DNA of 63,918 nucleotides, counting the filler, from Myxococcota bacterium (GTDB lineage: Bacteria; Myxococcota; Myxococcia; Myxococcales; Myxococcaceae), in NCBI GenBank assembly GCA_049322255.1. It is 3 parts of 3 records of this genome, joined end to end, with 100 filler letters (N's around TTAATTAATTAA, not from the genome) between each part and the next. Parts side by side here need not be neighbours in the genome. Positions count along the whole stretch, not along the records: positions 1 to 21,821 come from JBMORE010000073.1; 2 more parts are not named here. One strand, written 5' to 3'. The notes beneath the pieces are model-generated. The model did not search any database, was not told the origin of the DNA, and saw only the letters and a program-made list of their open reading frames with translations. Each line of letters begins with the position of its first letter. Position 1 is the stretch's first letter. Position numbers and translations under genes: made by a program. Positions 17,199 to 43,443 of this stretch are shown here, in pieces.

Positions 17199-19997
17199 TT
17201 ACCCGGCGACCAGGCCGGGGAACAGCTCCGCTTGCGCCGGTGCCCGCGCGCGGGAGGGCGTCTTCACCGCTCCCATCTTCTGCAGCTCTTCGCGAATGCG
17301 AAGACGCGCCTGGGCCCAGGCAAGCGCCTCCACCCGGTAGCCCTCGAGCGCGTCGAAAACCTTTTGGCGGTACGCCTCGCTCCCCGGGTCGGCGATGATG
17401 ACCACCCCGCGGTCGTTCGCCGAGCGCAGGAGTCGGCCGACTCCCTGGCGCAAGAGCAAAAGCGCGCGCGGCAGCCGGTAACGCGCAAAGCCCGAGGTGG
17501 CCGCCTCGGCCAGGCGTTCTTCACGGGCGGCGACGAGCGGGCGGGCCTTGGGCTCGATGGGCAGCTTGTCGATGAAGACGCAAGTGACTCCCGGCCCGGG
17601 AATGTCCACGCCCTGCCAGAAGCTCTTGGTGCCCAGGAGCACCGAACCAAAGTCTTGCTCCTGGCGCTGGGCGAGAGAGCGCGCGTTGCCGTGAAACTGC
17701 CGCAAGACCTCGATGCCCAAAGGCTCGAGCACCGACTGCACCCGCTGGGCGACCGCATCGAGCCGGCGCGCGGAAGCAAACAGCCCCAAGAGCCGGCCAC
17801 CCATGAACGCGGCCAGCCCAGAGATGCGGGCCGCTGCCCACTCGGCAAAGCCGTCGTCGTTGGGGTCGGGGGCGTCGGTGACCAGCACCACCAGCGCTCC
17901 TTTCTCCACGTCGAAGGGGGAGAGCGCCTTCACCAAGCGCGCCCGACCCAAGCCCACGCGCGCGAGGGCGAACGGGCGCTCCCCACCGGTCGACAGCGTC
18001 GCCGACGTCAGCACCAACGAACGCTTGCCGGCGGTGAAGCCCTCTTGGAGTAACCCGGCGACCTCGATCGGCTGCGCGACGAGGGCGAAGCCTCCATCGC
18101 GCCAGCCTACCTGGTAGCAGCGCGCTGGGTGGGGACGCTCGGTGAGCTCCTCCACGAAGGTGGCGTGTTCCTCCAAGGCGGCCAGTGCGCTGGCCACCTC
18201 GCGCTCCTGGTGGGACTGCGAGGGAAGGGTGGGTGAAAGCTCCTTCAGCGCCGAGCCGAGGGCACGCAGCGCTGAACGCAGAAAGAGAAGCTCGCGCCGC
18301 AGAGGCTCGAACGTCGGCGAAGCATCGAGCCGGCGCTCACCCCCATAGGGCCCCGGTGGAAAGACCTCGCCCACCGCCAAAGTCAGGCGTTCCCTGGACT
18401 CGACCAAGGCCCGCGAAGCAGCGGCCAGCGGTGTCTCTTTCGCCAGGCGTAGGCGGAGCAGGCGCGCTTCCAGCTGAGCGAGCAGCTCCTCGGTCAGCTC
18501 GGCCGAGTAAGCCGAGGTGGCGGTGTCTTCCAGCTCGTGCGCCTCGTCGACGACGATGTGCCGCACCTCGGGGTAGCGCTCCGGCCAGGCGAGGGCGAGT
18601 GACTGGTTCACCACCAGGAGGTCGGCTGCCTTCGCCTGCGCCACCGCCGAGTGGTAGTAGCAGCGCTGGTAGTGCGGACAGCGTGGGCCCAAGGTCGCCG
18701 CGGCCTCCGAGCGTGTCGCCGCCGCCAACCTTGCCAACCCGGGGTAGCGCCCGCGGAACCAGTAGCTTAAGCGGTCTAAGTCTCCGTCGGCGCTGCGGCG
18801 TAAGAAGGCGCGCAGGTAGGCGCGGGGAGCGCGCTCCTCGTGCGGCAGCTCTTTGGCGCCCTGCGTGGAGGTCAGCTCCAGCGCCCGGCGTCGGCACAGG
18901 TAGTTGTTTTGGCCTTTGAGCACCGCGTAGCCGAACGCCCCCGCAGTCGCCTGGTGTAGCTTGGGCAAGTCCTTCTCCACCAGCTGGTCTTGCAGCGTCC
19001 GAGTGTGCGGGGCGACCGCGACCTTGATTCCGTTGCGCGCGGCGAAGAGCGCGGCGGGAGCGAGGTACGCCAAAGACTTCCCGGTGCCGGTTCCCGCCTC
19101 CACCGCCAGCGTCTCGCCTCGGTTGAAGGCCTGCGCCACTTCCCGAGCCATCGAGAGCTGTTCGGGTCTGGGAGTGAACCCCGCCGAGGTCCGCTCCAGC
19201 GCACCGCCAGCTCCGAGGAGGGACTCGAGCTCGGCGTCGAACACCGGGCGCACCCCTTCGGAGAGCGGAGTTGCTGCGGGCGAGAGCCGCTCGCGCTCGG
19301 GCCGCGCGGGGAGAAAGGGCGTCGAGGGGGTCAAGGTGAGGGTGGAGGGGGCCTGAACGCACAAGGCGTGCAAACCGCGCAAGAGCTCGACCAGCGCAGC
19401 TTCCCTTTGTGCACCGAGCAGAGGTTGGCTGGGAGCTGGGTCGAGCACCGCGAGCAAGTCGCGCAGGTCATCGGCGCGCGCCTCGCTGACGCACTTGTCG
19501 AGCGCGAAACGCAGGACCGCGAAGGTGTCTTCGCAGTCTTGGAGGGCGCGGTGTGCCGCCGCTTCGCCCACGTTGGCCCAGCGGACGGCCGCCTCGAGCG
19601 AGTGGCTGTCGAGCTCGGGGTAGAGGTAGTGGAGCAGCTCGCACGAGTCGAGCACCGGCGCGCGAAGGGGGACGAGCACCTCAGCGAGAAAACTTTCCTC
19701 GAAGGCGGCGTTGTGGGCCACCACCGTCCATCCACGTAAGGCCGCTTGCAGCTCCTGTCGGAACGAGGCGAAGGCAGGAGCCTCGCGCAAATCCTCGTCG
19801 CGAATTCCGGTGAGGCGGCGAATCGCCAAGGGCAAGGGCCGCGACGCGCGAAACAGCTTGGACAGCCGCCCGGTCACTTCGCCGCGCTCGACGAAGAGCA
19901 CGCCGAGCTCAATCACCTCGTCGCGGGAGGGGTCGAGCCCGGTCGTCTCCAAATCGACGAAGGCATGGTGCGTCCACAGCGAGGCGGCGCCGGACAT
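17199..19997 (-). CDS. dinG: DEDD 3'-5' exonuclease fused to DinG/YoaA-family ATP-dependent helicase
   Basis: FVDLETTG, HNAAFE, HRALQDC; EAGTGTGKS, DEAH, NYLC/CPHYQRC, FWQGVDIPG, QGVGRLLR. Confidence 0.92.
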   Translation of the reverse strand: MSGAASLWTHHAFVDLETTGLDPSRDEVIELGVLFVERGEVTGRLSKLFRASRPLPLAIRRLTGIRDEDLREAPAFASFRQELQAALRGWTVVAHNAAFEESFLAEVLVPLRAPVLDSCELLHYLYPELDSHSLEAAVRWANVGEAAAHRALQDCEDTFAVLRFALDKCVSEARADDLRDLLAVLDPAPSQPLLGAQREAALVELLRGLHALCVQAPSTLTLTPSTPFLPARPERERLSPAATPLSEGVRPVFDAELESLLGAGGALERTSAGFTPRPEQLSMAREVAQAFNRGETLAVEAGTGTGKSLAYLAPAALFAARNGIKVAVAPHTRTLQDQLVEKDLPKLHQATAGAFGYAVLKGQNNYLCRRRALELTSTQGAKELPHEERAPRAYLRAFLRRSADGDLDRLSYWFRGRYPGLARLAAATRSEAAATLGPRCPHYQRCYYHSAVAQAKAADLLVVNQSLALAWPERYPEVRHIVVDEAHELEDTATSAYSAELTEELLAQLEARLLRLRLAKETPLAAASRALVESRERLTLAVGEVFPPGPYGGERRLDASPTFEPLRRELLFLRSALRALGSALKELSPTLPSQSHQEREVASALAALEEHATFVEELTERPHPARCYQVGWRDGGFALVAQPIEVAGLLQEGFTAGKRSLVLTSATLSTGGERPFALARVGLGRARLVKALSPFDVEKGALVVLVTDAPDPNDDGFAEWAAARISGLAAFMGGRLLGLFASARRLDAVAQRVQSVLEPLGIEVLRQFHGNARSLAQRQEQDFGSVLLGTKSFWQGVDIPGPGVTCVFIDKLPIEPKARPLVAAREERLAEAATSGFARYRLPRALLLLRQGVGRLLRSANDRGVVIIADPGSEAYRQKVFDALEGYRVEALAWAQARLRIREELQKMGAVKTPSRARAPAQAELFPGLVAG

Positions 19998-20837
19998 CAA
20001 GTAGACCTCGACCGGTACATAGACCGGCCGAGGCCCCTCACAGAACCGGACGTGCGGGTTTCCCGCATCCGGCTCTTCGGTTGGTGGTTTCGTTCGGAAT
20101 GATGCTCCGAGGTGAGGTTGTTCAGCTTGTCGCCGCGTGGCGGCTCAGGGAGCGGGTTGAAGCGCAGCTTGCGCTGGAACTTCTCCCAGTCGAAGGAGTG
20201 CTTCTGGCTCCGTCGGTTGAGCCACTTGAAGAGGTGCCCGATGCAGACGAAGCGGTAGTGCGACAGCTTCGCTTCGTTGAAGCACACGCCGAAGTAGTTG
20301 AAGTGGCCGTTGAGCCGTGCACGTGCATCAGCCCAGAGCTGCCTCAGCGGCTTCTTGTTGCGCGTCGCCTTCACCCATTCGAGGAAGGCCTGCATGCTGC
20401 GGTGGAGTCTCTTCGCGGTTGTCTTGAGTTTCAGCAACCGGCCGCCCTGCTTGTCCCTGCCCCAGAAGAAGTCGAACCCGAGGAACGAGACGACCCCTTT
20501 AGGGGCTTTAGCCGAGAAGGACACGATGGTGCTCTTCGCGATGTTCAGCGAGAGCCCGGCCTCTTGCAGGCGGAGTTGCAGCGCCGCCTGCAAGGACCGA
20601 GCGGTTTCTTCATCGGTGAAGACGAAGACGGCGTCATCGGCGTAGCGGACGAACTCTCCTTTTCCGGCGTATTCCGCGTCGAACCAGCCGTCGAGGAGGT
20701 GATGCAGGCAGACGCCACCTCGCGATGGCGCTGCACGCAAGACTCGGTACCAGCAATGCGTCTTTTGCTGGGCGGGCCTGCTCGCCTGCCTCCCGGCAGT
20801 CGCTTTCCCGCTGGTCAGCGGCAACTTCGTGACGCAC
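19996..20837 (-). mobile_element. Group II intron, internally deleted (842 nt), inserted inside the dinG start codon
   Basis: 5' end GTGCG at 20837. Domain V GAGCCGGATGCGGGAAACCCGCACGTCCGGTTC (20075-20043). Domain VI hairpin with bulged A and terminal AT at 19997-19996. RT/maturase remnant inside. Confidence 0.9.
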
Positions 20838-20839
20838 AT
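19997..20839 (-). CDS. Truncated group II intron RT/maturase (end of RT4, YADD, RT6-7, domain X), open from the host ATG
   Basis: LHHLLDGWF, FVRYADDAVF, LSLNIAKS, FLGFDF, LNGHFNYFG, KWLNRRSQK. RT0-RT3 are missing. Confidence 0.8.
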   Translation of the reverse strand: MCVTKLPLTSGKATAGRQASRPAQQKTHCWYRVLRAAPSRGGVCLHHLLDGWFDAEYAGKGEFVRYADDAVFVFTDEETARSLQAALQLRLQEAGLSLNIAKSTIVSFSAKAPKGVVSFLGFDFFWGRDKQGGRLLKLKTTAKRLHRSMQAFLEWVKATRNKKPLRQLWADARARLNGHFNYFGVCFNEAKLSHYRFVCIGHLFKWLNRRSQKHSFDWEKFQRKLRFNPLPEPPRGDKLNNLTSEHHSERNHQPKSRMRETRTSGSVRGLGRSMYRSRST

Positions 20840-20845
20840 GATGCC

Positions 20846-20873
20846 AACCTAGCGGATAGGTCCGACACTTGAA
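20846..20873 (-). promoter_or_regulatory. Putative leaderless promoter of dinG/intron
   Basis: Minus strand TTCAAG-N16-TAGGTT-N6-ATG(20839); no Shine-Dalgarno. Confidence 0.5.
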
Positions 20874-20917
20874 GACTCCGCGCCACAAGGGAAACGCATC
20901 TGCATCTCCCGGGCTTC

Positions 20918-21072
20918 GTGGCTTTGCTGAAGCTCAGCGCTCTCTCGTCGCGCGCTCCCGCCAGCCGGCACTGCCCGGCGTCCCTTTTGAGGGTTCTTGT
21001 TCTTAACGCTGAATCATAAGCAAAAAGAACCTGCAAAAAGAACCCTGTCATTATACATCTTCAGCAAGCCAC
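20918..21072. repeat. MITE-like element / nested inverted repeats
   Basis: GTGGCTTTGCTGAAG (20918-20932) versus CTTCAGCAAGCCAC (21059-21072); AT-rich interior with GCAAAAAGAACC twice. Confidence 0.4.
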
Positions 21073-21642
21073 CCCCTCAAAAAGCTCCCGTTGGCCTCCC
21101 CGTTAGGGCTCGCCACAGCAGCGTCATCAGGGCTCTCCGCTCGAACCCATCCTGCATGCATCGGTCCCCCAAGGAGCGCCGTTGCCCACCCGCGGGAGCT
21201 GAGCTAGCACGCCTTCGATGGCCGACCGACCTCTTCCGGTAGGCGATGACGGCGCTACCGGCCTATTTCCGTCCAGTGCCATGGCTTTCAACTGCCCAAG
21301 CGCCGTCTTCTTGTTGTGCGAGCGTGAGCAGTCCATTTCGAGGTTCGGCTCCGTCTGGACGACATTCAAGCCTGTAGGTCATTTTGGTTTTGGAGGTAGC
21401 GAACTTCATCTCCTCGCGTAATTGGCATGATCCTGTCGCAAGTTCTGCCAAGAACCTGTTGAACGTGGCTCTTGAGCTCAAGAGCTCCGAAGTCCCTATC
21501 TCCAACGGTTACGGCGTCAAGGTACGCTGCCGCAGTTCGAGCGGGGTCTGCCCTGGTAGCGCGGACGTCGGCATCGAACTGCCTATCTTTTTTCGGCGCC
21601 GCGCGAGGGGCGCACTGATGGGCGAACAAGGAGATCGGCACG

Positions 21643-42976: not shown

Positions 42977-43195
42977 AGTGACCTCCCGGTTGGGCTCCGG
43001 CGCCGCCAGCCGTGGAGAAACAATAGCAGCAGCGCGGTCAACAAAAGAACGGGGACCGCGTCTTGTCCGGCCGAACAGCCGCAGCCGACGCGGAGATGGA
43101 GAGGGGTCAAAGCGCCGCCGTCCGCAGTGGTTCCCCCATCGACTTCGGAGCCTCCATCGTTCGCTGTTCCTCCGTCGGGCGGAGTTCCTCCGTCG
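42973..43195 (-). CDS. 3' end of a third MYXO-CTERM-type surface protein (5' part lost at contig end)
   Basis: DGGTPPDGGTANDGG...VGCGCSAG..VPVLLLTALLLLFLHGWRRR...*; GTGA overlap with the Kelch gene start. Confidence 0.8.
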
Positions 43196-43295
43196 NNNNN
43201 NNNNNNNNNNNNNNNNNNNNNNNNNNNNNNNNNNNNNNNTTAATTAATTAANNNNNNNNNNNNNNNNNNNNNNNNNNNNNNNNNNNNNNNNNNNN
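43196..43295. other. Artificial contig linker
   Basis: N44-TTAATTAATTAA-N44. Confidence 0.98.
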
Positions 43296-43375
43296 CGGTC
43301 ACAGTGGCGCGACCGCGCCGGATTCTCACCGGCTTCCCTTTTCGACGCCCTCCTTGGGCACCCAAAGGCGAAACC
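43296..43375 (-). promoter_or_regulatory. Cobalamin (B12) riboswitch, 5' part
   Basis: Minus strand GGTGCCC..GGGC..AAAAGGGAAGCCGGTGAGAATCCGGCGCGGTCGCGCCACTGTGA, matching the B12-element core. Confidence 0.88.
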
Positions 43376-43443
43376 GCTTGTACGCGCGGGCGCCGACAGC
43401 GTCAAGGCTGCACCCGCCAGCGACCCGCCCATGTCGCCGAGCT

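Follow-up and report, generated by a model that had tools for sequence, protein, structure and literature searches.

Group II introns inserted inside start codons: a probably internally deleted copy at dinG of a Myxococcaceae bacterium and its relatives

Group II introns are thought to be tolerated by their hosts because they are spliced out or avoid genes. The IIC class, which includes GsI-IIC and the introns of Eubacterium rectale and Roseburia intestinalis, is known for insertion a few nucleotides downstream of terminator or attC hairpins. In the yeast mitochondrial introns aI1 and aI2, the intron protein is translated from the upstream exon through the 5' ribozyme domains, as one fused frame that is proteolytically processed and without a re-start on the downstream exon. 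A clade of IIB1 introns found at start or stop codons carries an insertion of 300-700 nt in domain I and a CL1 reverse transcriptase (RT) with an endonuclease (En) domain, and each intron of this clade is specific for a single housekeeping target (Michel et al., 2007, as summarised in the relevant part of Gomes et al., 2025, PMC12584367). Here we describe a group II intron copy inserted inside the start codon of the exonuclease-helicase gene dinG in a Myxococcaceae genome (phylum Myxococcota, GenBank assembly GCA_049322255.1). The whole stretch of DNA analysed, hereafter the window, comprises 63,918 nucleotides joined from three records, and the dinG locus lies in its first part (positions 1 to 21,821, JBMORE010000073.1); all coordinates count along the window. 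On balance, comparative sequence analysis leads us to favour the reading that this copy belongs to an intron lineage that inserts within the AT/G of start codons (the slash marks the insertion point), carries a coupled chain of reading frames and would allow the host protein to be made without splicing.

The first-pass annotation of the locus had placed a group II intron inside the AT/G of the dinG start codon, and both junctions can indeed be recognised in the window. Along the minus strand, the sequence across the 5' junction is GGCATCAT/GTGCG (with longer context, TAGGTTGGCATCAT/GTGCGTCACG), the first intron base being 20837, and that across the 3' junction is CTACTTGAT/GTCCGGC (with longer context, GAGGTCTACTTGAT/GTCCGGC), the last intron base being 19996. 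Excision of 20837-19996 restores TAGGTT-GGCATC-ATG-TCC. The boundaries GTGCG...GAT follow the group II rule GUGYG...AY, as they do in all family copies with a known 5' end. With G as its first base and AT as its last two, the intron creates an ATG at each junction; the downstream one, rebuilt from the intron AT and the exon G, is overlapped by a TGA, again as the first-pass annotation had it. The parts of the copy are listed below, where ORF1 denotes the open reading frame (ORF) that enters the intron from the upstream host ATG.

20837-19996, minus strand: group II intron copy, 842 nt, GTGCG...TTGAT, internally deleted
20838-20839, minus strand: 5' exon AT, the A and T of the original dinG start codon, completed by the intron G at 20837 to the upstream ATG
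20714-20837, minus strand: intron 5' piece, equivalent to positions 1-124 of full-length relatives
20714/20713, minus strand: deletion junction, at which ORF1 is fused in frame to the C-terminal part of the RT
20078-20713, minus strand: RT remnant, from LHHLLD of RT domain 4 through YADD and the thumb/X region
19996-20077, minus strand: domains V and VI (DV and DVI), matching Rfam RF00029 (Intron_gpII) with 52.3 bits, E 2.2e-7
20006-20009, minus strand: GAGG, Shine-Dalgarno (SD)-like, in the 3' strand of DVI, 8 nt before the rebuilt ATG
19995-19999, minus strand: TGATG, in which TGA (19999-19997) overlaps the rebuilt dinG ATG (19997-19995)
19997-20839, minus strand: open frame of 280 codons, from the exon AT plus intron G to the TGA

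Four relatives match RF00029, which has a gathering score of 40, with 51-53 bits. The DVI helix covaries over 31 distinct tails, and the branch-point A is at 20002, the seventh base from the intron 3' end. Compared with full-length copies, the window retains positions 1-124 and the last ~718 nt, and ~1075-1089 nt are gone, including most of domain I (DI), DII, DIII and RT domains 0-3. A full-length relative, L064, comes from a Myxococcaceae metagenome-assembled genome and measures 1945 nt. The 5' piece is 90-91% identical to the intron 5' ends at the ends of three other contigs of the same genome (C171, C65 and C12) and aligns to positions 1-123 of the loci L080 and L094. The RT remnant is 78% identical at the amino acid level to the copy on contig C187 of the same genome and 72% identical to that of L064, with a ratio of nonsynonymous (dN) to synonymous (dS) substitution of 0.26-0.45. 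Only the C-terminal part of the RT is held by the 280-codon frame, whose residues 48-123 align to positions 137-204 of the 205 positions of the RVT_1 model with 28.7 bits, just below the cut-off of 29.6 bits. Domains I-IV, the catalytic scaffold with the exon-binding sites, are not found in the window copy, the region that matches RF02005 in relatives being absent. Because most of DI, DII, DIII and RT domains 0-3 are missing, the window copy cannot self-splice; it is a remnant, predicted to be unable to work as a ribozyme.

The same junctions recur wherever sister copies were found. In the window's own genome, the 5' flanks on C171, C65 and C12 all read CAT/GTGCG, and the 3' flanks on C187, C76, C35 and C101 all read TTGAT/G followed by an ORF; the junctions are repeated in the relatives G018, G003 and G013 and in G393, G387, G285 and G317. 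The window junctions are thus far beyond chance, since copies in this genome and elsewhere share them. Family copies were retrieved with a 26-letter pattern inside DV that does not include the 3' junction. The pattern is present at 42 metagenome loci, 29 of which have the family 3' end, the remaining 13 being other elements or reaching the contig end first. Among 401 genomes sampled across the phylum, it is present in seven, all from one bacterial family (six of the 171 genomes of that family and the window's own genome). The profiling set, drawn from the metagenome loci and the relatives' copies, comprised 36 distinct 3' flanks and 18 distinct 5' flanks, and 31 distinct tails were compared.

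Exon position +1 is G in 36 of 36 distinct 3' flanks. The 5' exon has T at position -1 in 17 of the 18 flanks, A at -2 in 16, C at -3 in 14 and A at -13 in 13. The tails end in TGATG (17), TAATG (13) or GGATG(A) (1), and a stop codon TGA or TAA consequently overlaps the host ATG in 30 of the 31. GAGG is present in 25 of these tails; three have another SD-like word and three have none. The expectation of the first-pass annotation that homologous introns would show both a start-codon habit and a terminal stop overlapping the host ATG is thereby borne out. At one site (L099) the codon is GT/G, and a GTG start becomes ATG at the intron 3' junction. A search with the RT remnant returned one close relative (L064) and eight distant loci, mostly from Verrucomicrobiota, at 30-38% identity; in the seven distant loci examined (L065-L071), the ORFs stop with neither DV nor a stop-ATG overlap nearby, and these loci do not share the architecture of the window intron.

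Some other loci were seen alongside the family. Five metagenome loci (L079, L092, L105, L111 and L112) have the same domain V followed by a different, mutually conserved sequence in place of the family domain VI, and may represent another derivative or a different element. In the L095/L100 lineage, a different frame, opened by the GTG of the intron itself, contains no stop. The assemblies of G015, G020 and G029 are interrupted by other, unrelated families of multi-copy group II introns (L012, L016, L021-L027 and L030-L033); these have ordinary 3' ends, for example CTACCCGAC, with no stop-ATG overlap.

In intact copies the frames form a chain of host ATG-ORF1, GTGA, RT, T(G/A)ATG and host gene, in which every base of the sense strand is coding. 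ORF1 spans 156-183 codons and runs stop-free through DI-DIII. Over the first 460 nt its frame contains no stop in 14 of 15 copies, compared with one to eight stops in each of the other sense frames, and these copies are only 62-94% identical in this region. The ORF1 TGA overlaps the GTG of the RT frame (GTGA) in 12 of 14 copies and ends 30 nt earlier in the other two; an SD-like GGAG or GGGGGG stands 8 nt before the RT GTG. A fusion of ORF1 and RT by -1 frameshifting in the G-run before GTGA was also considered, the SD-like word with its GTG giving a simpler, separate initiation. The RT frame of 487-495 codons passes through DV-DVI and reaches the terminal stop, and changes in DVI loop length amount to 3 or 6 nt in 30 of the 31 tails. 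No Pfam match was obtained for the ORF1 peptide, and the openness of ORF1, not its protein, looks selected. As a control, unrelated group II introns of relatives were inspected; only L010 was clear among these short loci with spurious high-GC ORFs, and there the RT stops 17 nt before DV.

The uninterrupted 280-codon frame reported in the first-pass annotation is present in the 842-nt form; as a single frame it is peculiar to this deleted copy, the intact relatives having ORF1 followed by the RT. All three deleted derivatives found keep open frames up to the host ATG, the window copy by the in-frame fusion of ORF1 to RT, L093 by a loss of 311 codons and L090 by complex losses; the latter two also retain the whole 5' ribozyme part. 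L090 and L093 may represent RT-less copies open to splicing or mobilisation in trans. Taken together, the comparative data support selection for translation that reaches the host ATG.

We also asked what kind of sites the family occupies. An ORF of at least 100 codons is opened at 23 of 27 decidable sites, whereas in the genome as a whole, which has a high GC content, 40.9% of CATG sites do so (p = 2.8e-6). Pfam models match 16 of 28 downstream proteins and start at the very N-terminus or just past the signal peptide, as for DivIVA (residues 3-132 on model positions 1-130), SDF (9-102 on 1-94), ABC2_membrane (7-215 on 4-210), protein kinase (14-143 on 3-131) and gamma-glutamyltranspeptidase (from residue 54). 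An in-frame stop lies at most 34 codons upstream at 12 of 14 sites. The host genes are mutually unrelated and not housekeeping genes. Upstream of the 18 sites no recurrent hairpin was found, DNA folds of the preceding 45 nt giving a mean z of -0.3 relative to shuffles.

The 5' flanks are marked instead by promoter-like boxes. An exact TANNNT that starts at -14 to -16 and leaves a spacer of 6-8 nt is present in 7 of 18 flanks, compared with 0.8% of genomic CATG sites (p = 6e-11); the base after the box is G in 11 of the 18, and a pyrimidine immediately precedes the A of ATG in 15. This layout would correspond to a -10 box, a discriminator and a transcription start site on the A of ATG. Across the window's own genome, ATGs that begin ORFs of at least 150 codons show an excess of TANNNT at 6-12 nt upstream, with 51-90 counts per spacing vs a baseline of ~20-30, a peak at 8-9 nt and ~300 genes above baseline, which suggests that roughly 300 genes have no leader or a very short one. 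We infer leaderless transcription, with transcripts that begin at the ATG. In contrast to the genomic peak at 8-9 nt, the intron sites favour the shortest spacing, 6 nt. Had copies inserted at any (C)ATG, with the harmless ones persisting, the start-codon pattern would reflect survival and not targeting, and more copies would be expected at neutral intergenic CATG sites than at start codons; yet long ORFs are opened at 23 of 27 sites, and the -10-like box stands at a fixed 6-nt spacing, tighter than that of the genome. We regard such an explanation as unlikely, even though it accommodates the very few conserved exon positions (-3 to +1), the failure to find an upstream hairpin or a long intron-binding site in the 18 5' flanks, and the four of 27 decidable sites that are not gene starts (L064/L130, inside a gene end, L076, L102 and L110). 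The fixed spacing points to recognition of promoter-proximal starts, or to a need for them.

At the locus in the window, the host gene and the elements before it are as follows.

17199-19997, minus strand: dinG exonuclease-helicase gene, 932 codons from the rebuilt ATG, intact
20846-20851, minus strand: TAGGTT, a -10-like hexamer 6 nt before the original ATG (leaderless-type promoter)
20859-20867, minus strand: TGTCGGACC, an upstream motif in common with dinG orthologues, probable promoter/operator element

The protein matches the Pfam models RNase_T (1.9e-20; the N-terminal exonuclease), DEAD (2.4e-9) and Helicase_C_2 (1.3e-26), plus ResIII, and thus has the domain set of the DinG family (RNase_T, DEAD/ResIII and Helicase_C_2). 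The closest dinG genes are from other genera, with 54-58% amino acid identity over the first 300 residues, and the start was accordingly judged by N-terminal protein alignment together with the upstream motif. All 14 relatives' loci that reach the N-terminus have an ATG or GTG within three codons of the aligned window ATG, with orthologue N-termini such as MGGAAELF, MQDGRALF and MSKNPPLL vs MSGAASLW in the window. The claim that dinG of relatives begins at the same place has therefore held up; the alignments indicate that the 3'-junction ATG corresponds to the dinG start of the orthologues and that the insertion is precise. In at least 9 of the 14 loci (among L035-L048 and L059), the start codon is preceded by TGTC(G/A)G(A/C)CC, 7-9 nt, TAGGGT and 6-11 nt. 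The window copy of this motif (20867-20846, minus strand) abuts the intron 5' end, and the shared motif is probably a conserved promoter/operator of the exonuclease-helicase gene.

In an Rfam scan of the 1 kb preceding the intron, the sole match was to a miRNA, at chance level. Further upstream than the dinG promoter, ~300 nt (20933-21246) have a relative at C54:57373-57607 that is 76-83% identical, two public contigs depart from the window sequence at 20933 and 20992, and the contig end (21677-21821) overlaps the start of C40 over 145 nt at 96%.

The junctions, the site preference and the frame architecture with its conservation are established; the mechanism that we propose from them is as follows. 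Members of the lineage insert into start codons, after the T, and mostly into genes with a -10 box 6-8 nt before the ATG, where a 5' exon of 2 nt in a leaderless transcript would fit very short exon recognition. The intron would borrow the host promoter and start codon to make its RT, either through coupling to ORF1 or from the RT's own SD-like word, and unbroken translation over ~1.9 kb would avoid polarity. Ribosomes that end the RT frame at T(G/A)A could re-start on the overlapping host ATG, aided in most copies by the GAGG 8 nt upstream, which would otherwise be buried in domain VI. The host protein would thus be made from unspliced RNA, and splicing would be needed mainly for intron mobility. 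The window copy would be a dead derivative, in which the loss fused ORF1 to the RT tail and left one frame from the promoter-proximal ATG to the dinG ATG. Translational coupling, and with it expression of dinG without splicing, is what we infer for this locus.

The family might alternatively be an ordinary splicing-dependent one, in which the rebuilt ATG and the overlapping stop are by-products, the host is expressed only after splicing, and dinG, next to a dead copy, is silenced or poorly expressed. The ribozyme is indeed conserved (D1D4-6 matches of 74-118 bits in four of four full-length copies, with DV/DVI matching too), and an AY 3' end followed by G at +1 gives a junction ATG automatically. 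However, such an account leaves unexplained that the RT frame passes through DV-DVI with frame-keeping length changes in 30 of 31 tails, that position -3 is G or A only, both giving stops (30 of 31), that ORF1 is stop-free in 14 of 15 diverged copies, and that the frame chain is kept in all three deletion derivatives. Nor would it predict that dinG, next to an intron without a ribozyme core, keeps all its domains and an intact frame of 932 codons; beside the remnant the gene is still preceded by the conserved promoter motif, a single open frame and the TGATG overlap. We consider splicing-dependent expression improbable.

A number of points nevertheless weigh against the coupled, splicing-independent expression that we favour. 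A search of sequencing runs for the stretch returned four DNA runs and no RNA runs. Coupling between ORF1 and RT may not be needed, given the RT's own SD-like word 8 nt upstream, and the GAGG in 25 of 31 tails allows independent initiation at the host ATG instead of coupling. The purine at intron position -3 could serve RNA structure and not a stop codon. The conserved peptide motifs of ORF1 coincide with conserved ribozyme sequence, and the ORF1 protein itself may be meaningless. In the L095/L100 lineage, the 5' exon ends in GA, so that no exon AT is available, and ORF1 is broken after 57 codons. Finally, there are the four sites that are not gene starts, and the TANNNT box is exact in only 7 of 18 flanks, rising to 12 of 18 if relaxed to NANNNT.

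A more far-reaching version, which we put forward only tentatively, is that the lineage is specialised on the transcription and translation start of leaderless genes. It would find its target via the promoter, either through the melted non-template strand of the open complex or through the -10 box at a fixed 6-nt distance, with a 5' exon of 2-3 nt, the host gene as the last cistron and host expression free of splicing. If so, the ribozyme-less dinG copy would be a natural demonstration of host expression without splicing.

How far the deletion junction in the window can be trusted needs separate consideration, as sister copies in the same genome break the assembly. C171, C65 and C12 end 121-124 nt into the intron 5' end, C76, C35 and C101 begin ~124-128 nt before the intron 3' end, C187 holds the last 780 nt, and the interior of a full-length intron is absent from the own-genome assembly. 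The 842-nt form could accordingly be an assembly artefact in which the real dinG locus holds a full-length intron of ~1.9 kb and its 5' flank contig was wrongly joined to a 3' contig. What counts against a genuine deletion is that the junction falls at the exact base where C171 ends, with C65 and C12 ending 1 and 3 nt earlier; moreover, CAT and the 124 nt add up to 127 nt, apparently the k of the assembler, and a similar length of intron (~124-128 nt) is present on the 3' flank contigs. However, 12 of 127 positions distinguish the window 5' piece from the C171 type, which leaves the two without a common 127-mer, the first 70 nt past the junction differ from the contig-end sequence of C187, and no graph path was found that would yield the false join. 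Internally deleted members also occur in independent metagenome contigs (L090, 796 nt; L093, 1027 nt with a clean 933-nt loss). In addition, the RT remnant of the window shows a higher dN than that of C187 against the same partners (0.152 vs 0.109, 0.151 vs 0.103 and 0.192 vs 0.145), an increase of the kind expected if the copy and its RT remnant are dead.

Public contigs neither span nor contradict the junction. Logan contigs of the best-holding run, X1, are exact over 19700-20417 and 20891-21000, none covers 20668-20711 or 20844-20887, and 20438-20641 is covered only by the C187 paralogue, all 17 listed differences matching C187. We judge the junction to be probably real and give the false join an appreciable, if smaller, probability. 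If the 842-nt form were an artefact, dinG would carry a full-length family member; only the single 280-codon frame would be lost, and the family findings would still apply.

The architecture suggests a third way for a group II intron to be tolerated, besides being spliced out and avoiding genes: to land on the first codon, rebuild it and keep ribosomes moving into the host gene. If this is true, a retroelement would express its own enzyme from a host promoter and start codon while the host gene stays active, the persistence of dead, unsplicable copies in important genes would be explained, and the element would offer a natural template for insertions that leave their target gene working. Through its close association with the -10 box, the lineage opens to direct test the long-standing question of how introns without an En domain locate targets with almost no base pairing.

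Elsewhere in the window, on a different contig from dinG, a cobalamin riboswitch match was recorded at 43161-43380 (minus strand), with 34.5 bits vs a gathering score of 31.5 and lying partly across a masked N stretch.

With regard to known introns, the RT of L064 is a full RVT_1 match (126.5 bits), the Pfam scan of the intron-encoded RT gave no match to the GIIM maturase model, and the D1-D4 region matches RF02005 in four of four full-length relatives (74-118 bits). The closest solved RTs are of the IIC class (7uim, 6ar1, 5hhj and 5hhl, E ~1e-42), followed by a IIB RT (8e-35) and LtrA (4e-24). Much as in IIC introns, the RT is En-less and IIC-like by sequence search, target sites are many and dispersed, and exon recognition, judged from conservation at -3 to +1, seems limited to ~3 nt plus the +1 base. 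Unlike IIC introns, the lineage has no upstream hairpin at its sites and targets start codons beside -10-like boxes. To our knowledge, an RT frame that extends through DV-DVI is not a known trait of IIC introns. Like yeast aI1 and aI2, the lineage would be read from the upstream exon, but through two ORFs that overlap at GTGA and with a stop-start overlap on the host gene.

The likeness to the IIB1 start/stop-codon clade lies in the insertion within or next to a start or stop codon, between codon positions 2 and 3, and in the retention of a functional codon, the groEL TAA becoming TAG in that clade and the ATG being rebuilt here. In contrast to what the consulted part of the source reports for that clade, however, the lineage of the window targets many unrelated genes; only 469-550 nt separate the intron 5' end from the RT start, and the D1-D4 model match already begins 35-75 nt in; and a C-terminal endonuclease domain is absent, RVT_1 being the only domain in a protein of 476 residues whose last ~40 derive from DV-DVI. 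The chain from ORF1 through the RT to the host gene is not mentioned for the clade in that part of the account (PMC12584367). Among the matches listed by a full-text literature search there was no description of the lineage, the ORF chain or leaderless targeting, and Michel et al. (2007) might mention the lineage. By its sequence features, and as far as the clade is characterised in that account, the lineage is neither the published IIB1 start/stop-codon clade nor a typical IIC intron.

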